A program made the position numbers and the translations under genes. Below the pieces are notes generated by a model that was not told the DNA's origin, ran no database searches, and saw only the letters and a program-made list of their open reading frames with translations. Of a stretch of 64,000 bases of DNA, positions 12,224-41,481 are shown one piece after another. The stretch is from positions 1-64,000 of IMG/VR virus record IMGVR_UViG_3300029841_000009. One strand, written 5' to 3'. The number at the start of each line of letters is the position of its first letter. Position 1 is the stretch's first letter. The DNA comes from a virus. Its lineage: Duplodnaviria; Heunggongvirae; Uroviricota; Caudoviricetes.

Positions 12224-12516
12224 TCCTGTTCACTGGCCTCTTTGGCCATCTTCAAATACTGTTCAGGGCAATGCGCCATAACGCGCTGAAACAGTTCCAG
12301 CGCCAGATTGCGTTGCCCCTCATTAAATGCCATTGCCATAGCGTCCATCGGTGAGATAGCGGAAAACACACGGCCTTTCTCCAGCACCGACCAGACAACG
12401 CGACGCCCCTGTTCACTGCTCATGACAAAGCGAATGTCATCAATTTCACGCTGTGCCATGTCACGTTGCTTACGGGCGTTTTCTTCTTTCAGTTGATCAT
12501 CTTCGTAATCTGTCAT
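12220..12516 (-). CDS. hypothetical protein
   Basis: 98-aa ORF overlapping the portal stop and scaffold start (translational coupling). Confidence 0.4.
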   Translation of the reverse strand: MTDYEDDQLKEENARKQRDMAQREIDDIRFVMSSEQGRRVVWSVLEKGRVFSAISPMDAMAMAFNEGQRNLALELFQRVMAHCPEQYLKMAKEASEQE

Positions 12517-14192
12517 TGTGATTGCCCACCCTGACCACTAACTGCATTCGCCATAGCTGACAAAACACTCGGATCCGAAGTTTTAGCTTCGCTTAGCGTC
12601 TTGGCACCCTGTGCCGCCGCCATCCCCATCGCCATCATTTGTTGCTGCTGTTGTTGCTGTGCCCGTTGCTGGCGAGCCTGCTCAACCTGTTCCTGCGGAA
12701 CAATGACGGTTGGAGACACTCCGGACATATCAGCGAATGCATCGATCGCCTGATCAACGTTGAGTTTGTCGAGAGCTTCTGGTTTCGCTTGCGCAAGTTG
12801 ACCAATGAAGTTAACCGTGGACGCCAGACTGGACAGGCCGATAGACTTCTGCGCCTGAGCCATGACGGAAATGTATTCGACCTTCAGGGGCATACCTTCC
12901 ATCACGTCTGGCGGTGGCGGCAGCATGTTTTTACGCACCATCATCGAGAAAGAGCGGTCAATGAGAGGATTAAGACATTCGTCGTTCAGACGCTCCAGAA
13001 CCGGCCCCAACATCAGAAGTTTTTCTTCTTTCATTTCGATCACCGCTTCAACAGGCATCGAGCGGGTATTGATGTTCTGCAACATCATGAACAGATCGAC
13101 AAAGTAGGCGCTGTTAATGATTTGACGAGTGTCCTGAATGTCTGCCACCAAATCTGCTGTACTGGGGTTAACCAGATAAGCAGGCCTGAAACCATCCTGA
13201 CCAGTAATCTGATCGATATACGTGATGTCGCCAGGAAGAAGGGAGGCACGCTGATTCTTGAGGGAAGTCGGAGCAACCATCGGCGGATTGGTGGCTTTAT
13301 CAATCAACTGCGACTTGCGCTTCTGGAGAAGCTGCAATGCCTTAACAGGTCCAAGCGCCAGCATACCCGGGCATGATGATCCATAAACATCTTCGCCGTT
13401 AACTTCCCAGCGCGGGGCCATAATTGGAAACTCATCGAATCCGGACTCACGCAACAACTTGTCGTTATCGCCACCAACCTCGTAATAAACCGATTTGAAT
13501 GGCTTGTTCTTGCTATCCAGCTTCGATGTATCGCGGTCAATGTTCGGGTAAACCGAATGCATCACTTCAATCCACTTCTCGTAGGTTCCGCTTTCCCACA
13601 TGCTTTTTACGGATTCGCTGACGTTATTTAGCCCGAACTCCTGAACAAGCTGACGAACAGTCATAGAGAACTTGCGAAAACAGGTGTCCACACTGCCACG
13701 AGGTGAGTTAGCCAGGTAGTAACTGCCTATCGGGAATGGCATTGTGCGAATGATGTCCTCGTCATCCTCCAGCACTGCCATTGCACCAGTGCTGTATGTG
13801 CCGAGGCTTCCGTATAACTGCGGCAGCGACTGATAGAGATTCGACTTATTGAACATATCGTTCATGCGGTTCTGCACCGCCTCAAGCCACAACTTAACAG
13901 GGCCATAATCCATCATTTCAGGATCTGGCGTAGCCAGGCGAAACCACGGACGCGCGGGGCTTGTGATGCCTGACATCATGCCGCTGGCGAGAGTGCGCGC
14001 CGCCATAGTCCCGGTCGAATCAATAATGCGTGTATTGCGTCGATCGTTACGGTTGACCTCAGAAGTCAGAAAGCGGGAACCACGCGGGTTGATGTAATCA
14101 CTCAACTCGCGCCAGTGCGGCTCGAACGACTGACGCTCGCTTTCAAGTTGTGCGAACTGTTTGTTCAATCGCTCTTTAGTTGTTTCCGCCAT
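12513..14192 (-). CDS. portal (head-tail connector) protein
   Basis: 559 aa, first large gene after the terminase; GGAG ribosome-binding site upstream of the ATG; Gln-rich C-terminus; size matches podovirus portals. Confidence 0.65.
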   Translation of the reverse strand: MAETTKERLNKQFAQLESERQSFEPHWRELSDYINPRGSRFLTSEVNRNDRRNTRIIDSTGTMAARTLASGMMSGITSPARPWFRLATPDPEMMDYGPVKLWLEAVQNRMNDMFNKSNLYQSLPQLYGSLGTYSTGAMAVLEDDEDIIRTMPFPIGSYYLANSPRGSVDTCFRKFSMTVRQLVQEFGLNNVSESVKSMWESGTYEKWIEVMHSVYPNIDRDTSKLDSKNKPFKSVYYEVGGDNDKLLRESGFDEFPIMAPRWEVNGEDVYGSSCPGMLALGPVKALQLLQKRKSQLIDKATNPPMVAPTSLKNQRASLLPGDITYIDQITGQDGFRPAYLVNPSTADLVADIQDTRQIINSAYFVDLFMMLQNINTRSMPVEAVIEMKEEKLLMLGPVLERLNDECLNPLIDRSFSMMVRKNMLPPPPDVMEGMPLKVEYISVMAQAQKSIGLSSLASTVNFIGQLAQAKPEALDKLNVDQAIDAFADMSGVSPTVIVPQEQVEQARQQRAQQQQQQQMMAMGMAAAQGAKTLSEAKTSDPSVLSAMANAVSGQGGQSQ

Positions 14193-14206
14193 TTCAATGA
14201 CTCCGG

Positions 14207-14413
14207 TTACTGACCAAGCAGCGTTTTACCGCTGGTATTAGCGGTTGATGTGTCGCCCTGAGAACCGGTAAGCAGCGTAGAACTACGACCAGCAGCAGCG
14301 CGACGGCGACGAGTTTCTTCGTCGCGGGCATCAACAACGGCGGCATCCTGCTCCTGTGGTGCTGCCTGAACTTCTGGTGTTGCAGGCACTGATGGTGAGC
14401 TACCCATGCACAT
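14207..14413 (-). CDS. small low-complexity ORF upstream of portal
   Basis: 68-aa Ala/Thr/Gln-rich ORF; weak coding evidence. Confidence 0.2.
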   Translation of the reverse strand: MCMGSSPSVPATPEVQAAPQEQDAAVVDARDEETRRRRAAAGRSSTLLTGSQGDTSTANTSGKTLLGQ

Positions 14414-14840
14414 ATCAATGACTCCGTACGCAATTAAATTATTACCAATTTAACCACATATGATTTATTTATCGTAGATAGTTGACATTTAACGCACAAA
14501 TTATTACCTTTCAGGTAACCAAAGAATTCATTCCGGTTACTAACCTGACTGGCTTGTCGTTAAATTGAACAGGTGGAGTGAGCTTTTATTTTGAGCAGTA
14601 CGGCGTATGGCACATGCGCCGATAGCGGTCTGGATACGTTTAAGGGGCACCCTCCCTGGCTGTGGCAAACGAACCAGGTAGCCGGAATGTGCAAGTCGAG
14701 CGGTTTTATTCCGCGCACGGGGATTCACCATCCCGGCGATTCGGTGTGACGCCTCGGAAGAGACGAGGGTACAACGATGAGAGCATTTATGGAGCCGCGA
14801 CAAAGTGTGGCGCCTTAACAGGCTAAGTGCTCTCAGCGTT

Positions 14841-14917
14841 GTGGCATTAGCTCAGTCGGACAGAGCAACCGCCTTCTAAGCGGTTGGTCGCAGGTTCGAA
14901 TCCTGCATGCCACGCCA
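14841..14917 (+). tRNA. tRNA-Arg (anticodon UCU), CCA-encoded
   Basis: Cloverleaf traced by hand: acceptor GTGGCAT/ATGCCAC, D-arm GCTC/GAGC, anticodon stem ACCGC/GCGGT with loop CTTCTAA, T-arm GCAGG-TTCGAAT-CCTGC, discriminator G and CCA; closely resembles E. coli argU. Confidence 0.85.
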
Positions 14918-15115
14918 GAATCACGCCTAAGGACCGTGATGCCAGAAGTTCCAGGTGCTTGGCGGTGATGGTTTCCCTTGAAGGACTATCACCACCCTTT
15001 TTACAGCAGGACGCCATTGCGATGACTTCATGCTGTAAACCAGTACAGCCACGGAAGGCATAACTCATTGCTTCCAGTTCGCCCGATTCGCCGGGCATTT
15101 TTTTAAGGTGAGATT

Positions 15116-15487
15116 ATGAACGACCAGCAAATCGAAAAAGAAATCGTTGAGAAAGGCAAAACGGCACCGCGCGTTACGCCAGACCATATCGAAGGCATTA
15201 TTGCTCAGGAGGCATATTTCACAGCAGAAGATGGTGCCTTTGGCAAAGCCATAAAAGAGAAACATACTGGCGGAGAGGTAAACTACCAGCCGCACGAATC
15301 ACTTTCTCTGCTGACGTTCTGCGTCCTGGTGCTGCGCAACGGCTTCACCGTCACCGGAGAGAGCGCCTGTGCAAGCCCGGAAAACTTTGATGCGGAAATT
15401 GGTCGGAAGATTGCCCGGCAGAATGCTGTAAACAAAATCTGGATGCTCGAAGGTTACTTGCTGAAGCAGAAGCTAAGCGAGCAATAA
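15116..15487 (+). CDS. conserved hypothetical phage protein (moron, same strand as tRNA)
   Basis: 123-aa ORF on the opposite strand to the flanking structural operon; followed by a hairpin plus T-run. Confidence 0.5.
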   Translation: MNDQQIEKEIVEKGKTAPRVTPDHIEGIIAQEAYFTAEDGAFGKAIKEKHTGGEVNYQPHESLSLLTFCVLVLRNGFTVTGESACASPENFDAEIGRKIARQNAVNKIWMLEGYLLKQKLSEQ

Positions 15488-15504
15488 CGCCGTGACATGT
15501 CACA

Positions 15505-15537
15505 ATCAGCCAGCCTATGAGCTGGCTTTGTTTTATC
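15505..15537 (+). terminator. rho-independent terminator
   Basis: Hairpin AGCCAGC-CTATGA-GCTGGCT followed by TTGTTTTAT just after the 123-aa ORF. Confidence 0.4.
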
Positions 15538-15577
15538 CTCACCAGAGGATATCAGCAGCATTATCCCATCCAGCGGA

Positions 15578-17053
15578 TTAAGCATAGGGATCGTAATCTG
15601 TGATGGCTTTGCCTTGCTGGTTCTGCTGCCCGGGAATTCGCAGACGCTTCGACACAGGGAACGCAAACGTCAGCAGTAGCGCATCGCCTTTACCAGGAGA
15701 ACGCCCAAGTCGCTCTTTGATATCTTCCTTCGGTTCGATAACGATTTTACCGTCCACGCGAACTTTGTACTCTGCCGTCGACAGGTCGTCCGCTGTTTCC
15801 TGGTCATCCAGCATGCCGCCGAGCCTCAGCCATGTCTTGCATGAGTTGAACATCTCCCCACGCTTGTTGAGCATCTGCGGGTCAGTAGACGCGCCACCGA
15901 ACGGAACAAGTTGCCATGTACGACCCCAGCCGTCACCGATTGACTTCAAACCGGTTCCGTAACCGAAGTCGATGAACACCGCGTCAGCCTGATACTGGTC
16001 TTCAAAGTCAGCGATACGCTTCGCCATAATCAGATCGTCGGTAGTCTTGTTGCCAGTCCACAGCACCTTACTGTGTAGCCCCTGCCGCAGGTATATCACC
16101 GCGTCATCAACGCCTGAATATGCCGGGTCAACACCGATTATCACCGGAGCATGTGCAACCTGCGCAGCGGTTACCACCCGTTTCATTGCCTCGTCAGTAA
16201 GACCGGTAGGGATAAACTGCAATTCAGATGCATCAGGGAATATGCCACGCACACGGATTTTAACGAAGTCGCTATCTTCCCCGTAGTCATCAACCCATTT
16301 CTGCAACTGCTGTTTGTTGGTGCCTTCCACCGTCCTGCTGTCAATCTGCGCAGTTTTCCAGCGGTGTTTGTATTTGCGGAAACATTCACGGAAACGCCCG
16401 GTGTTACGTGTAGGGTTTCCGAAAGCCACCCAGATAATCTCAGTGTCTTCGTCCGTTAGCGCACCCTCGGCAACTTCCCACACCAGATCCGCAATGTTCG
16501 ACGCTTCATCAAATACCACAATGATGCGTTTACGCTCGTTGTGTAGTCCGGCGAATGCCTCAGTGTTGTGCTCAGACCAGGGGATTGCGTCAGCTCGCCA
16601 CCGCTTGTCGTGCCCAGGGTCATTGCTGTACATCGCGGTAGCGGTACAGGTAAACCAGTCTTTCGTGATAGCAAGGTTTGACCACTTGATAATTTCCGGC
16701 CAGGTCTTCGTTCGTAGCTGGTTGTCGGTGTTGGCGGTCACCACGACCTTACAATCCTCGCAAGTGGACATGCCCCAGTTGATCAGCATTGAGATGAATG
16801 CGGATTTACCAATACCGTGACCAGAAGCACGTGCCAGCATAAGCGGCTGATATCGCGTCTCTGGATTCTGCAGGTGATCACGTATCTCTCGGAACGCATC
16901 AGCCTGCCACTGACGTGGGCCGGTGGCATGTGCCAGTTCAGTCCCCTCTTCCCCCCATGGGAACGCATAGAGGGCATAGCCAAGCGGATCGTGAGTGAAC
17001 CCTGCAATATCCTCGATTAACTGCTCTTCAGGAGATAACGCTGTATCTGTCAC
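15578..17053 (-). CDS. terL: terminase large subunit
   Basis: 491 aa; Walker A-like GHGIGKS, Walker B-like VVFDEAS, C-terminal nuclease-like region; overlaps the small-subunit gene. Confidence 0.8.
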   Translation of the reverse strand: MTDTALSPEEQLIEDIAGFTHDPLGYALYAFPWGEEGTELAHATGPRQWQADAFREIRDHLQNPETRYQPLMLARASGHGIGKSAFISMLINWGMSTCEDCKVVVTANTDNQLRTKTWPEIIKWSNLAITKDWFTCTATAMYSNDPGHDKRWRADAIPWSEHNTEAFAGLHNERKRIIVVFDEASNIADLVWEVAEGALTDEDTEIIWVAFGNPTRNTGRFRECFRKYKHRWKTAQIDSRTVEGTNKQQLQKWVDDYGEDSDFVKIRVRGIFPDASELQFIPTGLTDEAMKRVVTAAQVAHAPVIIGVDPAYSGVDDAVIYLRQGLHSKVLWTGNKTTDDLIMAKRIADFEDQYQADAVFIDFGYGTGLKSIGDGWGRTWQLVPFGGASTDPQMLNKRGEMFNSCKTWLRLGGMLDDQETADDLSTAEYKVRVDGKIVIEPKEDIKERLGRSPGKGDALLLTFAFPVSKRLRIPGQQNQQGKAITDYDPYA

Positions 17054-17727
17054 TGATTGCCATCCTGACGTTCTTTCAGTCTCTTCCTGGCTGCCGCTAT
17101 GCGATCAGCAATTGTCACATTCACATTAACATCCAGGCGTTCTTTGAATGCGTTGACGTCGACGTGCTTACCAATCAGTTCGAGGTTCTTCACCTTGTCA
17201 GGCCATTTAATTTTTTTGAGGATGCCAACCAGCTCTTTCTCGTCTCCACGGCCTTCGAACATGTCGGCCAGTTCGAAACCTGTCAGGTACTGCCGCCAGA
17301 CCTTAGGCCATTCCGAGACCGGCTTGATGCTCATATCGTCGTTGAGAATGTCAATCACGTCCATCTGGTCGATCTCCACCAGGCGCATGAGAACGTAATC
17401 AGCACTGACGCGCATTCGTTTGTTGCGCTCCTCCATCAACTCGGCAATCCGTTTCTGAATGCGTTCATCGCGCATCATGACACTGGCTTTAACTGCCGCT
17501 GTATTTGGGGAGAATCCTGCATTAATCGCAGCCTGAGTCTGGTTTTCAGGCGTTTTGATGTATGACTGGCAATAAGCCTCCTGCATTGCTGTTAGTGGCT
17601 TAAATTGCGTTGATTTGCGTTTATAGGTTTTAGGTTCAGCAGGCATCATAACCACCGTGGTAATAGTTACCGTTGTGGTAATAGTACCATGCAAAATAAA
17701 GCCGCCATAGTTGGCGGCAGTATTCAA
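17050..17727 (-). CDS. terS: terminase small subunit
   Basis: Motif QEAYCQSYIKTPENQTQAAINAGFSPNTAAVKAS typical of small terminase DNA-binding domains; true start may be the internal Met (MMPAEP). Confidence 0.6.
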   Translation of the reverse strand: MNTAANYGGFILHGTITTTVTITTVVMMPAEPKTYKRKSTQFKPLTAMQEAYCQSYIKTPENQTQAAINAGFSPNTAAVKASVMMRDERIQKRIAELMEERNKRMRVSADYVLMRLVEIDQMDVIDILNDDMSIKPVSEWPKVWRQYLTGFELADMFEGRGDEKELVGILKKIKWPDKVKNLELIGKHVDVNAFKERLDVNVNVTIADRIAAARKRLKERQDGNQ

Positions 17728-27882: not shown

Positions 27883-27894
27883 ATTCAACCATAA

Positions 27895-27925
27895 AAAAGG
27901 CCCCCGAAGGGGCCTAATCGCTACT
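27895..27925. terminator. bidirectional hairpin terminator
   Basis: AGGCCCC-GAAG-GGGCCT with an A-run 5' on plus (T-run on minus). Confidence 0.5.
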
Positions 27926-28043
27926 TGCTGCTAATGTTTATCGTCACATTCAGAGCGTTATCAGTAATCTTCCAACCCTCCCCATGTGGCGTAAACAAAG
28001 CTCCAGTAACAACGATAAAAATACACATACAGTATTTTTTCAT
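27921..28043 (-). CDS. small hydrophobic peptide (about 40 aa)
   Basis: Internal Met of track ORF 27921..28103 gives MKKYCMCIFIVVTGALFTPHGEGWKITDNALNVTINISSK; ends at the terminator hairpin. Confidence 0.35.
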   Translation of the reverse strand: MKKYCMCIFIVVTGALFTPHGEGWKITDNALNVTINISSK

Positions 28044-28539
28044 TGTATGGCCCTTACAGGCCGTTTCACGGCATCCCCACCGACGAAAACAACGCGAGAG
28101 CAAGCACGGCTGCTTGTGCTTGCATGTACGGCAACGGAGAATCCTCCCCTAAAGTCGGTGCCCGGGTGCGAATCGGCGGGAAGGTCCACAGGTATTTTAC
28201 GATTATTTTAAGATTAGTTATAGGAAAGAAATTAAACGAAAAAACTCGTTTATTTTCACAAAATCAGTAACCTACCCACAATCTGTGAGTTTGCAGGCAC
28301 AACAAGAACCACAATTTTATGAAGCATAATAGTGGACTATTATTACCTTTTGGGTAAAATTAACTTGCTGCTTGTGCTTGCGTGGTTGTTTATACAACAA
28401 CGTAATGCTGAAAGGACCGCGAATCCGATCAGCACGAAAGAACCGTCCTCAATAGGGCGGTTTTTTTGTTTCTGCCTACCAATAAACCCACACTATGTGG
28501 TTGTCTCTGTTAAAATCCCGCCGTATTGACATAAATGCG

Positions 28540-28640
28540 CCATTGGTGGACACTTTCCGAGCCGTAGCAAAATCTACGGTCGGGATTGGAACCCCGATAA
28601 TCATCATGGCGCATACCGCGTTAGCGGTTTTTTTATGCGT
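28540..28640 (+). ncRNA. candidate structured regulatory RNA upstream of the antirepressor operon (immI/c4-like antisense RNA)
   Basis: ORF-free; successive hairpins (CCGTAG-caaaat-CTACGG; CGGG-ATTGGAA-CCCG) ending in ACCGC-GTTA-GCGGT plus T7; loop ATTGGAA is complementary to the downstream loop GTTCCAAC. Confidence 0.35.
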
Positions 28641-28799
28641 AAAGCACTGCTACACCCAAATTATGGTGGGGCGTGCGGGGGAGTCGTAAGACTCGCCGGA
28701 TTCCATGGTGACCGGTAGTTCCAACCCTGTACGTCTCACCACCCAATGATTGGAACCAGACGGTGGTGAGTATCCTTAACCTTTAAGGGAACTATCACC

Positions 28800-28991
28800 A
28801 TGACAAACCTACCCCATGACTATTACGTCAACCTCGTAAAGATCCTTCTCAAGAAAGCCTCATACGCCGATAAATTCCGCCTGGCTGAAATCATCGAGCG
28901 CGAAGCTATGCGCATCGCCAGCAACGATAACGCTGTTTCTGTCGCAAAAATCTCCCTCGTAACCAAAGTAGTTATGGGAGGTGCAAAATGA
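28800..28991 (+). CDS. small ORF translationally coupled to the antirepressor (icd-like position)
   Basis: 63 aa; stop overlaps the antirepressor ATG. Confidence 0.4.
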   Translation: MTNLPHDYYVNLVKILLKKASYADKFRLAEIIEREAMRIASNDNAVSVAKISLVTKVVMGGAK

Positions 28992-30169
28992 AAACGCTTC
29001 CGACCGTTAACACCCTACAGCCTATCCTGCATAACCAGCTCCCCGTTATCACTACTGAACTACTGGCGCAATTGTATGGAACCGAGCGCCAACGTCTGAC
29101 AAACAATTTCAATAGAAACAAGGAACGTTTTATAGAAGGTAAACACTTTTTTAGGATAGAAGGTAAAGAGTTACGAGAGTTGAAGAACAAAAACTCTTTA
29201 AGAGTTCCTGTGAGAGTAGTTAACGAACCATCTTTAAGAGGGTTACAAATTCCCCCGAAAGTTCGCTCCCTCATCCTCTGGACAGAACGCGGGGCTGCAC
29301 GTCACGCCAAAATGCTTGAAACTAACCAAGCGTGGGATGTGTTCGAACGGCTGGAAGACAGCTACTTCAACCAGAACGCACAAACGGCCGCGACCGTAAC
29401 CGTCTCACCAAACAATGCTCGTGAGGTTGTCGATACGCTCAACGCCAAACCAATGTATTACGTTAAGGTGTGCAACAACGAGCCACTCACAACCTCAGCC
29501 GATGTTGCCCAAGCATTCAGCACCACAAACAATTCCATCGTTATGGCCATCGATGCGTTACGCATTCCTCGCACGGCTGCGGCGCGTCACTTCTTTAAAG
29601 AACAACGACCGCTGGAAGGAAGCGACCGCGAAATAACAATCTATCGCATGACAAAAGACGGATTTACCTTGCTCATGGAAAGTATCGACGGTCCAGGCGT
29701 GAAGGATATCAAGCTGGCCTACATTGAAGCCTTTAACGCTATCAGCAGCGTGTTAAAGGCAGAATACGAGCGAATGCTATACAACCGACTGTATCAGGAA
29801 ACAAAGATTATCCGAACGGCAACAGAACATCATCGGCTATTAACGGAACCAAACTACCGCAAGACACTAATCAAAGAGTTTGACAAGGCGACGGAGAAAA
29901 CTAAAGCGGCACTAAATCTACCAACAATGACTAAAGATGATGTGATATCAGCCTTACTTCTTGATCTGCTCAGAAACGCCAGAGCACTTATCAGTTTTGA
30001 CGAAAACCTGAATCCTCAGCTCAAGCTACTACCACCGACAGGCAAAGTAGTCGACCAAGCAGATCACAACAGCATACTCAGCGTACTGGATGCAAACCTG
30101 CCAGCCAGGACACTACAGGAGCTGATAAAAATATCTGCGGATAAACTGGCCGCAGGTGCAAAACCATAA
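28988..30169 (+). CDS. ant: phage antirepressor (AntA/ORF6N-like N-terminal domain)
   Basis: 393 aa; N-terminal VITTELLAQLYGTERQRLTNNFNRNKERFIEGKHFFRIEGKELREL resembles antirepressor N-domains; sits downstream of the RNA-like region. Confidence 0.55.
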   Translation: MKTLPTVNTLQPILHNQLPVITTELLAQLYGTERQRLTNNFNRNKERFIEGKHFFRIEGKELRELKNKNSLRVPVRVVNEPSLRGLQIPPKVRSLILWTERGAARHAKMLETNQAWDVFERLEDSYFNQNAQTAATVTVSPNNAREVVDTLNAKPMYYVKVCNNEPLTTSADVAQAFSTTNNSIVMAIDALRIPRTAAARHFFKEQRPLEGSDREITIYRMTKDGFTLLMESIDGPGVKDIKLAYIEAFNAISSVLKAEYERMLYNRLYQETKIIRTATEHHRLLTEPNYRKTLIKEFDKATEKTKAALNLPTMTKDDVISALLLDLLRNARALISFDENLNPQLKLLPPTGKVVDQADHNSILSVLDANLPARTLQELIKISADKLAAGAKP

Positions 30170-39782: not shown

Positions 39783-40364
39783 TTAGCACTCACCAATTAA
39801 TCGTACATAAGACACAGGCTGGAAAGCACCGACAATACCAACACCACCTGAAACATTGGTTGCTTGCGAAAATGTAAATAGTGTTCTTGCCGACTTTGCA
39901 CTCTTGATACTTCTTAACGTATCCTCCAACATCTCTTTCGAAGGAACAGCACCATCAAAAGAGTTAATCGAAGCAACAATTGAGGCTGTATATGGTTCGC
40001 CAGGTGGTGATGTTTCAAACCATTCTGTTATGTTTACCTCTCCACCCAAGCTATTTACTACATCTTCAACCGCTGCCCTTGTACCCTTTATTCGCTTTGT
40101 TCGTATTATTGATTTAAAAACAGAACGCTTTAACGATACAGGCCAACTATCCCTCCATGTATCAGCATTCCATTGCCAAGCTAAATGATCGAGAACAACT
40201 GAGTCCAGGTTATCAACAACGCTATATATTTCTGTCTTATATATTAAATTGTTAATTGCTTGTAGTTCATCATCAATAGCTTTCGACATAGCTATCACGT
40301 TGGGATCGCTAGCTAAGTTAGGAGGTAAAACATCCAACAAGCTAACATTAAAGATATCAGCCAT
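39783..40364 (-). CDS. baseplate protein (P2 gpI-like)
   Basis: 193 aa, between the gpJ-like and fiber genes. Confidence 0.45.
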   Translation of the reverse strand: MADIFNVSLLDVLPPNLASDPNVIAMSKAIDDELQAINNLIYKTEIYSVVDNLDSVVLDHLAWQWNADTWRDSWPVSLKRSVFKSIIRTKRIKGTRAAVEDVVNSLGGEVNITEWFETSPPGEPYTASIVASINSFDGAVPSKEMLEDTLRSIKSAKSARTLFTFSQATNVSGGVGIVGAFQPVSYVRLIGEC

Positions 40365-41481
40365 CCTCTAACCCCGCATACTGGCAATTTATATTTCTCT
40401 CTCTGGCGACCTGTGTCTCTCCAACCACATTAAAAACAGGACTTGATATTTCTAATCTTTTAGCCCCAGCATTTTTTAAACGTTGAATAATTTCATCTGG
40501 ATTTATATCTCTTCCCATAACCGAACGTTGCCATTGTTTATACTCATCAATAGCTTTCTCAACCTCACTTTGAATTAAAGTTGTTCTGTTTTTGTCCGAT
40601 GAGTTAATCCAGTATTTAATTATTATATCGTATTCAATGCTCTCTGGTTTCTTAACAAGAACTTTATCTGTGAATGGTCGAATATTAGTTGCAGAGAGAA
40701 CGCTATTTATCTGCTCTAATAGTTCATCAGAAGGTATATCTCCGTTCTCTAACAAAGAACGGATTTCTACAATTCCGGGCGATGGTGTATATACATTCAC
40801 ATCTTTTATATTCTGATTGGCTGTTCTTGTCCAATATTTATAAGAATCCTCCGGCCCTGCTGTAGACAGTTTTTCCGGCGACAGTTTTATTCTTTCAGCA
40901 TAATTATCATCTGACTCCGTATCAGCACCAGAATTAGATGTTGTTACATTCCTTACTCTGGAAACATACGGCAACGGAGTCACCAACTCATTTATTTGCC
41001 CTGGTAAAAAGCCATTCCCAGATAAACCAGGTATAACAGCATATCCTGAGACTGTACCAACTGTTTTCCCAGCAGGTATTTCCAACAAAATATCTGTTTG
41101 GAAAATAACACCATTTCCAGTTGAAACTTGAGTGCCAGCAGGTATTGTATATATCCCCGATAATTTTGTTGACAGATTAAACTCAAATGTAGTCAAGGCA
41201 GATTGAGCTTCCAGCCTAGGCGTATCCGTCAGATAGCCTATATGGTCGAGATATTCACCTTCACCATATGTAAGAAGGTTTTGTTTTGCAGAAAAATCGA
41301 TAGCTTTTCTTTGCTGTATAATAATCTCACACAATGATAAGATGAATAATCTACGTGGATCAGCAGGTGCTAATGTTTCACCTGTTATACTCTCAAAAGC
41401 CCTGATTGAACGAGTTGTTATATCAGTCGGGTTAGAATCTGCGAAAGTAATATCTGGCAAACCACCACGCGGCAACGTCAT
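40357..41481 (-). CDS. baseplate wedge protein (P2 gpJ-like)
   Basis: 374 aa, follows the gp25-like gene; size and order match the Baseplate_J family. Confidence 0.5.
   Translation of the reverse strand: MTLPRGGLPDITFADSNPTDITTRSIRAFESITGETLAPADPRRLFILSLCEIIIQQRKAIDFSAKQNLLTYGEGEYLDHIGYLTDTPRLEAQSALTTFEFNLSTKLSGIYTIPAGTQVSTGNGVIFQTDILLEIPAGKTVGTVSGYAVIPGLSGNGFLPGQINELVTPLPYVSRVRNVTTSNSGADTESDDNYAERIKLSPEKLSTAGPEDSYKYWTRTANQNIKDVNVYTPSPGIVEIRSLLENGDIPSDELLEQINSVLSATNIRPFTDKVLVKKPESIEYDIIIKYWINSSDKNRTTLIQSEVEKAIDEYKQWQRSVMGRDINPDEIIQRLKNAGAKRLEISSPVFNVVGETQVARERNINCQYAGLEDG

Follow-up and report, generated by a model that had tools for sequence, protein, structure and literature searches.

A conserved pseudoknotted RNA at the head of a candidate early transcription unit with a tRNA-Arg gene and an Acb4-family gene in Uetakevirus-type prophages

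The DNA analyzed here, positions 1 to 64,000 of the virus record IMGVR_UViG_3300029841_000009 (Caudoviricetes), is referred to as the window (64 kb), and coordinates are window positions unless a locus label is given. Inside a minus-strand packaging operon (terS–terL and gp3–portal), the window carries a plus-strand insert with a tRNA-Arg gene, a 123-aa open reading frame (ORF) and a terminator. A first-pass annotation had described the stretch in front of the tRNA gene (14434–14840) as ORF-free. It is indeed non-coding, but it is not empty: on comparative grounds, it is virtually certain that ~14600–14840 forms a conserved, pseudoknotted structured RNA of five helices and ~190–250 nucleotides (nt). 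Our best explanation of the locus, with a probability of roughly 0.4, is that 14482–15527 is a single plus-strand transcription unit of a phiV10/epsilon15-like (Uetakevirus) prophage, with this RNA as its leader. By analogy with the put RNAs of phages HK022 and HK639, the leader may be a cis-acting antiterminator, a proposal that we hold just as tentatively.

In a sensitive DNA search with 14434–14840, the part at 14600–14840 is ~81% identical to non-coding DNA of lambdoid phages, including cdtI, mEp460, 2H10 and Stx2c-converting phages, and 14600–14762 is ~79% identical to phages P1, P7, D6 and SJ46. An alignment of 30 diverse copies (A3) and a covariance model built from it (R1) define module 1 of the RNA at 14601–14769, on the plus strand like module 2 behind it. 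Module 1 starts with helix P1 (14601–14621), followed by J1/2 (AUAGCGGU, 14622–14629) and helix P2 (14630–14633 with 14674–14677), which encloses a variable hairpin. An invariant single-stranded 19-mer, GGUAGCCGGAAUGUGCAAG (14677–14695), leads into helix P3, itself a variable hairpin (14696–14718), and then into helix P4 (14720–14724 with 14730–14734), the loop of which (CACC, 14726–14729) forms a pseudoknot with GGUG at 14743–14746. Helix P5 (14752–14756 with 14764–14768; loop GAAGAGA) lies at the 3′ end of the module. Module 2 (P6, 14772–14840) is a long hairpin with a lineage-variable interior, in which CAACGAUGAGAGCA is paired with UGCUCUCAGCGUUG (−29.3 kcal/mol in the minimum-free-energy fold); the tRNA would contribute its first base, G14841, to the last pair. 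The closing stem of this hairpin forms in most of the 30 representatives, with interiors of ~30–85 nt and stem variants such as GAGAGCGCAC/GUGCGCUCCC, and the module is missing from phage P1-type copies.

Pairing in A3 is strongly conserved: 94.7% of the cells are paired, and 12 pairs show compensatory change, in 80 cells altogether. None of 500 shuffles reaches the observed pairing values, and slid controls are 25–47% paired. The pseudoknot contains a pair that is C:G in 25 sequences and A:U in the other five, with no exceptions. In the window, R1 finds a single copy (14583–14798; 175 bits, E 1e-50), and it also recovers a truncated copy in epsilon15 (38 bits). A long-range GGCACAU/AUGUGC pairing suggested by RNAalifold was not adopted, as its columns are all invariant whereas the local helix P1 has compensatory changes. 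A coding role for 14434–14840 is ruled out as well: its mechanical ORFs (52–87 aa) are not conserved, and there is no conserved coding frame because homologues differ by insertions and deletions of 1, 2 and 5 nt, which are not multiples of three. Many lambdoid-type copies continue beyond module 2 with CGUUGUGGUGAAU and a further small hairpin, GCGCAGGCUGAUGCGC (e.g. L094, L128, L138, L146, L147 and L150), of which L146 carries a compensatory variant, GCCCAGGCUGAUGGGC; the RNA may therefore extend beyond the part that is present in the window.

These results contradict part of the moron reading put forward in the first-pass annotation. On such a reading, the insert would be an ordinary moron from which the prophage expresses a small protein and a tRNA for rare codons, and the 400 bp in front would be only promoter and spacer. 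In its favor, the tRNA is genuine, AGA is used in excess, a terminator of its own closes the unit, and the gene content of the slot varies among relatives, as it does in morons. However, the supposed spacer covaries strongly and is ~80% identical to non-coding DNA of unrelated phages (P1 and lambdoids), and the promoter, described below, bears a conserved operator-like palindrome. Moreover, the lambdoid copies examined sit behind an operator-bearing promoter placed like that of the early-left (PL) operon, which would be repressed in lysogens. Taken as a whole, the moron view appears very improbable to us.

Searching 13800–16000 against Rfam 15 with E values up to 1 yielded only the tRNA and a chance antisense match on that tRNA, and a full-text literature search for the invariant sequence returned irrelevant matches only. 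Its pseudoknotted, multi-helix fold with long invariant single strands is typical of aptamers and ribozymes. In combination with the terminators downstream of the RNA in the window and its location at transcript junctions with tRNAs, this fold could point to a cis-acting sensor or catalyst, either a riboswitch, whose signal might be a nucleotide, or a ribozyme that processes early transcripts near tRNAs by cleaving itself. We regard such a function as improbable. Even with E values as high as 1, none of the riboswitch or ribozyme families of Rfam matches, the RNA is followed by unrelated genes in its three genomic contexts (Acb4/Tad2, ban and RdgC), and the conserved core adjoins no alternative terminator/antiterminator pairing, since module 2 and the tRNA intervene.

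The RNA is common among enterobacterial phages and prophages. It is found in 1840 of 5426 complete Escherichia coli genomes, and none of the 40 E. coli matches listed coincides with an annotated feature. A scan for the exact 19-mer, with one genome per species, places it in about a dozen genera of Enterobacterales, and it was also found in a Lastavirus. One 19-mer match, in an Oscillospiraceae contig (L139), was excluded as a chance match. Another locus, a 1753-bp contig of a metagenome-assembled genome labeled Bacillota (L151), carries a full, typical copy similar to those of the Enterobacter and mEp390 type; the contig probably belongs to an enterobacterial phage and was mis-binned, and would then be no true occurrence in Bacillota.

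A census of 153 copies reveals three contexts. In the Uetakevirus type (32 copies), a tRNA-Arg(TCT) gene directly follows the RNA. In the phage P1 type (27 copies), a tRNA-Ile(CAT) gene lies ~15 nt upstream and ban lies downstream; in phage P1 itself, the matching segment is located between trnI and ban, in the C1-controlled ban operon. The remaining 94 copies, mostly at lambdoid loci, have no tRNA gene within 400 nt. Here, a cI-type repressor gene (Peptidase_S24, with a helix-turn-helix domain in one of two families) typically lies just upstream on the same strand (72 of the 94), and an RdgC-family gene is found downstream of 62. Phages cdtI, mEp390 and BUCT708 (the last deposited as a Stenotrophomonas phage) share this arrangement, with the RNA just downstream of the cI-type gene and on the same strand. 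The RNA of cdtI is preceded, at a distance of ~50 nt, by a promoter (TTGACA-16-CATAAT) with operator-like palindromes beside it, and in mEp390 the sequence GTAAGATATCCTAC, part of the promoter region in front of the RNA, is the exact reverse complement of an operator in the cI–cro interval. With promoter and operators directly upstream of it, the RNA of these two phages can be read from the sequence as the 5′ leader of the PL transcript.

The PL leaders of mEp390 (L130 2600–3060), LLS (L163 32150–31780, minus strand) and cdtI (L005 2915–3000) contain several further long hairpins of the module 2 type, which end in ...GCGCUYCC-AGUUGUGG or ...CUCUGUUGUG. The 3′ strand of these hairpins resembles boxA (UGCUCUUU, GCUCUUA) followed by a GU-rich, boxC-like tail, but this likeness may be coincidental because the boxA-like bases are paired.

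In the window, a candidate sigma-70 promoter can be read on the plus strand at 14482–14510, consisting of a −35 box TTGACA (14482–14487), a 17-bp spacer and a weak −10 box TACCTT (14505–14510). An exact match to the palindrome TTACCTTTCAGGTAA covers the −10/start region (14504–14518) and forms a candidate repressor operator. Among 26 distinct upstream variants, 25 keep the −35 box (the exception is a locus truncated upstream) with a spacer that varies, and both the box and the palindrome are kept in 24 of 25 distinct full-length variants, amid surrounding bases that vary. The equivalent site in epsilon15, ATTACCTTTTAGGTAAT, is annotated 'repressor' in NC_004775, which argues for an early lytic unit rather than a prophage-expressed gene. 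The label moron is thereby made doubtful, and repressor-controlled, early expression of the unit seems rather probable from the arrangement of these sites.

A one-mismatch copy of the candidate operator, TTACCTTTTGGGTAA, occurs at 28343–28357, ~220 bp upstream of isrK/c4, and this near-identity suggests that one repressor controls both the unit starting at 14482 and the isrK/c4 module. At Rfam gathering level, the surrounding region contains ryfA (27893–28189, minus strand, 142 bits), isrK (28561–28634, plus strand, 70 bits) and the C4 antisense RNA (28659–28746, plus strand, 84 bits), the last of which is followed by a 393-aa ORF (28988–30169, plus strand). With this ORF as a candidate member, the region looks like an isrK–c4–antirepressor module of the phage P1 immI type in the same prophage.

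Three terminator-like elements follow the tRNA gene on the plus strand, all picked up in a terminator scan. The first is a terminator-like hairpin at 14964–14993, followed by ACCCUUUUUA. The second, an intrinsic terminator of the form GCCCG-loop-CGGGC followed by AUUUUUUU (15081–15096), ends 10 nt before the Shine-Dalgarno sequence of the 123-aa ORF. At the equivalent place, epsilon15 has GCCCAC-UUCG-GUGGGC and a U-run, annotated as a rho-independent terminator; as its stem bases differ, the stem has been kept through changed bases. The third, an intrinsic terminator at 15508–15527 that is followed by TTTGTTTT, closes the plus-strand unit 50 bp from the terL stop codon. It has its U-tract on the plus strand only, and its equivalent in the phiV10 record is annotated as a putative rho-independent terminator. 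A promoter scan found no promoter-like site in the interval between the tRNA gene and the ORF. Because two plus-strand terminators and no promoter-like site lie in this interval, expression of the ORF, a candidate cyclic-nucleotide sponge gene (see below), appears to need read-through.

From ~14964 onward, the window is collinear with epsilon15 (L006 2815–2960), where the matching sequence directly follows the truncated RNA copy. This remnant (L006 2790–2850) retains only helix P1, AGCGGUC and one hairpin, and is joined directly to the sequence matching the window from 14964; it either arose by deletion or represents a minimal form with two hairpins, approximately the size of put. In other lineages of the RNA, the P2 hairpin (GGAUGGGUUCCCUUGAUGC) is similar to the hairpin at 14964–14993 (GGUGAUGGUUUCCCUUGAAGG...), and for that reason the block of RNA and tRNA may have been brought in by a recombination event inside an RNA copy that was already present.

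Based on this layout, we propose the following order of events. The unit would consist of an operator-overlapped promoter, the ~240-nt leader RNA, tRNA-Arg(UCU), two terminators, the Acb4-family gene and a final terminator, with the 5′ end of the transcript predicted near 14517, and its expression would begin early, upon infection or induction. The leader, while still nascent, would fold and act in cis on its own RNA polymerase, as the put RNAs of HK022 and HK639 do, so that the polymerase reads through the elements at 14964–14993 and 15081–15096 and reaches the sponge gene. A cut by RNase P at the 5′ end of the tRNA would separate it from the leader. The tRNA would then supply AGA decoding for AGA-rich phage genes, and the sponge would sequester cyclic nucleotides of the type used by the cyclic oligonucleotide-based antiphage signaling system (CBASS).

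The comparison with put is what lends this proposal its mechanism. Phage lambda has nutL just past the repressor gene, at the head of its early-left operon, and putL occupies the same place in HK022, HK639, UPF_BP1, S9-5, CobraSix and phiEt88. Both put and the RNA described here are, in lambdoids, located directly downstream of an early promoter past the repressor gene, and the window copy likewise lies downstream of an operator-bearing candidate promoter. The two also share a motif. Hairpin P1 of the window family reads ACGGCGUAUGGCACAUGCGUCG(UU)AGCGG, and stem I of put reads ACGGCGCG...AAACCAUGCGUCGGGAGCGCGG; common to both are the flanks ACGGCG ... CAUGCGUCG, followed by AGCG. The six 5′ bases and the nine 3′ bases are identical, as are 17 of 22 nt over one contiguous stretch. 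Among the shared features are a G.U pair and the sequence CAUG (14613–14616 in the window). In a cryo-electron microscopy structure, U28 in the CAUG of put inserts into the zinc-binding domain of the β′ subunit (PMC9378689). A pattern derived from the window-family consensus has one match in HK022 (putL) and one in HK639 (an annotated putL-like RNA), both exactly at the start of the put RNAs, and two unrelated matches in 2.9 Mb of other loci. Finally, no phage protein partner is evident for either RNA, and put has terminators downstream as the RNA does in the window. In the HK639 record, the early-right operon also carries an annotated 'M3-like RNA' behind cII (L156 37910–37969).

Several results weigh against this reading. 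The put sites of HK022 and HK639 are reached by nhmmer with the window family only at E values of 15–93, a hidden Markov model of put does not find the RNA element in the window, and R1 matches none of the put loci, including those of HK022 and HK639. The architectures are different too: put is ~70 nt long with two stems in a V shape, while the RNA of the window is three times that size, with a core of ~170 nt, five helices and a pseudoknot, as well as a hairpin of ~70 nt. The promoter itself is inferred and has a weak −10 box (three of six positions match), so that a consensus promoter scan does not list 14482–14510, and the operator pattern is not enriched across the window (four matches where two are expected by chance). 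In cdtI and mEp390, the scan found no clear plus-strand terminator downstream of the RNA, where only long-loop hairpins can be seen by eye. A put-type mechanism has been suggested by Casjens and co-workers for phage LLS, a lambdoid that lacks an N protein (PMC12315714). Its PL leader has terminators and hairpins resembling module 2, yet module 1 is absent, even though the lack of N would lead one to expect it; module 1 is thus not the general answer for N-less lambdoids. Lastly, the RNA is closely linked to tRNA genes in two arrangements that are independent of each other, and a processed, stable RNA would account for this just as well.

Further differences from put concern sequence and distribution. 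Stem II of put (GGGUUCAGGAUGAACGGCAAU) is only a loose counterpart of the invariant 19-mer, and, unlike put, the RNA also occurs outside lambdoids (in phage P1, Uetakevirus and a Lastavirus) and is often fused to tRNA genes. Since the model searches are non-significant and the architectures differ, we do not file the RNA as a member of the put family; the shared motif and position are the best available lead to its mechanism.

The linkage to tRNA genes is the starting point of another explanation, in which early phage transcripts carry the RNA as cargo and it acts in trans as a stable non-coding RNA. It would be excised by RNase P at the 5′ end of tRNA-Arg, or, in phage P1, via 3′ processing of tRNA-Ile, and would then bind a conserved host factor or defense component as a decoy or inhibitor. 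In 59 of the 153 loci, a tRNA gene abuts the RNA on the same strand (Arg after it or Ile before it), and in the window the last pair of module 2 even overlaps the first tRNA base. The 19-mer is invariant across at least 12 genera of Enterobacterales and a phage deposited as a Stenotrophomonas phage, which suggests a conserved host partner, and the three contexts have no protein gene in common that accompanies the RNA. Its neighbors belong to anti-defense or host-takeover functions (Acb4, Tad2-like and tci genes, and, in the ban operon of phage P1, tRNAs and the dicF-like region), and an LLS without module 1 is what one would expect of optional cargo. Among known systems, the species 1 and 2 RNAs of T4, an unrelated, lytic phage, are comparable in being structured RNAs of unknown function that are made from the same precursor as phage tRNAs. 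On the other hand, about two thirds of the copies are simply the 5′ leader of a PL operon with no tRNA nearby, the put-like signature of hairpin P1 and the downstream terminators in the window are left unexplained, and no target or partner can be named. On balance, we consider a trans-acting RNA somewhat less likely than cis-acting antitermination, and continue with the proposed antiterminator leader in describing the genes behind it.

The first of these genes encodes tRNA-Arg with anticodon UCU (14841–14917, plus strand, CCA encoded). The first-pass assignment holds up: ARAGORN calls exactly one tRNA in the window, with anticodon tct at position 35, and the Rfam tRNA model (RF00005) scores 73.3 bits against a gathering score of 29. 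Typing phages 9/10 and RefSeq E. coli genomes likewise have the gene annotated as tRNA-Arg. In the ORFs between 47 and 30839, AGA accounts for 73 of 539 Arg codons (13.5%), compared to roughly 4% in E. coli, which makes a decoding role reasonable and the earlier suggestion of a supply for rare AGA codons plausible. Known phage argU-like tRNA-Arg(UCU) genes share the anticodon and the cloverleaf, and likewise belong to temperate enterobacterial phages that over-use AGA; the tRNA described here differs in being physically fused to a structured leader RNA and, within the candidate unit, in being co-transcribed with an anti-defense gene. A role of the tRNA gene as attachment site was rejected, as attP of ZX5 adjoins the integrase gene and attB lies at the 3′ end of guaA. 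Farther along, a second long run of minus-strand ORFs (35029–63930) follows the Uetakevirus-like region; several of these are rich in AGA, such as 40357–41481 with 10 AGA among 20 Arg codons.

The second gene is the 123-aa ORF, found on the plus strand at 15116–15487 as the first-pass annotation had it (start codon ATG, Shine-Dalgarno sequence GGTGAG). In the Pfam search that had been recommended, its product matches PF13876 (Phage_gp49_66) over profile positions 1–82 of 82 (E 8.1e-35; 119.6 bits against a cut-off of 27), and it corresponds to PHROG 322. PF13876, with 1,331 sequences, is the Acb4 family of tetrameric cyclic-nucleotide sponges of viruses, of which all eight homologues tested bound 3′3′-cyclic GMP–AMP (10.1101/2024.12.30.630793). 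A phmmer comparison with the structure of anti-CBASS 4 (Acb4) of Bacillus phage SPO1 (9e4w_A) gives E 0.006 over 42 residues. Of the ligand contacts in SPO1 Acb4, F48, F62 and I66 are kept, E49, V56, Y57 and T70 are changed (to T, C, A and I, respectively), and K36 and K81 fall outside the aligned stretch; the ENF-DEIGR motif is retained. Judging from these matches, it is very probable that the ORF encodes a member of the Acb4 family of anti-CBASS nucleotide sponges. The window protein has an N-terminal extension of ~30 aa compared to SPO1 Acb4, and since the guanine-contacting E49 is T and Y57 is A, its ligand preference may differ. As regards the tetrameric alpha-beta-beta-beta-alpha fold of the family, a single-sequence AlphaFold2 model was unusable (mean predicted local distance difference test score of 47).

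Sister prophages with the same RNA and tRNA fill the slot behind tRNA-Arg in different ways: the ORF belongs to the Acb4 family in 16 loci, resembles Tad2 (PF11195) in two, and encodes a 306-aa protein without any Pfam match in eight (L106 and seven others). One of the Tad2-like proteins, of 98 aa, is found in a Uetakevirus-type IMG/VR locus (L061; PF11195, E 2e-24). With a Tad2-like gene in the place of Acb4, the slot has the pattern of an anti-defense hotspot. In a phage P1-type locus (L066), a 191-aa Tad2-like protein is encoded downstream of the RNA.

The surroundings of the unit are those of a typical Uetakevirus. On one side lie the genes for the portal protein (12513–14192; PF12236) and a gp3-like ORF of 68 aa (14207–14413), and on the other terL (15578–17053) and terS (17050–17727; PF03592), with a GP7-type major capsid gene farther along. 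All of the flanking genes are on the minus strand, which confirms the opposite-strand position that had been recorded for the insert, and the terminator at 15508–15527 (a hairpin and T-tract) bears out the claim that the insert has one of its own. The judgment that an antisense position between terL and portal is unusual has to be withdrawn: it is the normal, annotated layout of this phage group. The 1.47 kb at 14150–15620 share 95.7% identity with phiV10 and the O157 typing phages 9 and 10 (all genus Uetakevirus), and ~98% with 223 complete E. coli genomes, and this recurrence argues against an assembly artifact, which had been raised as a way in which the insert might prove spurious. The records of those relatives already list a tRNA-Arg gene and a "Gp49 family protein" in the terminase–portal interval. 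The same layout is present in phiV10, typing phages 9 and 10, ZX5, Salmonella phages of the SPN1S/SPC32H type and hundreds of E. coli prophages; some Klebsiella phages also have the tRNA, and epsilon15 has a Gp49-family gene at the equivalent position without it. The insert itself is therefore real but ordinary, and the earlier interpretation was partly right. As a combination of tRNA and ORF it is routine, and the value of the locus is in what had been passed over, the structured RNA and the Acb4-family identity.

The "hypothetical Gp49 protein" of hundreds of E. coli prophages thereby becomes an anti-CBASS candidate. The RNA, which is absent from Rfam 15, is present in about a third of complete E. 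coli genomes, unannotated among the matches listed, and sits in classic model phages, where it occupies the trnI–ban interval of phage P1 and, in many lambdoid and Stx2c phages, the PL leader. Should it prove to be an antiterminator, phages would have just two known kinds of RNA-only device for processive antitermination, and the RNA could explain expression of the early-left operon in some N-less lambdoid phages. If it acts in trans, it would be a new early phage RNA with a host target. We tentatively suggest, while granting it clearly less than an even chance, that the RNA is the first member of a novel class of large phage RNAs with pseudoknots, unrelated or only anciently related to put, which P1-, lambda- and epsilon15-like phages make at the very start of infection to act on a conserved host machine. 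Such RNAs could either reprogram RNA polymerase in a new way, by RNA alone, or disarm a defense or processing enzyme of the host.

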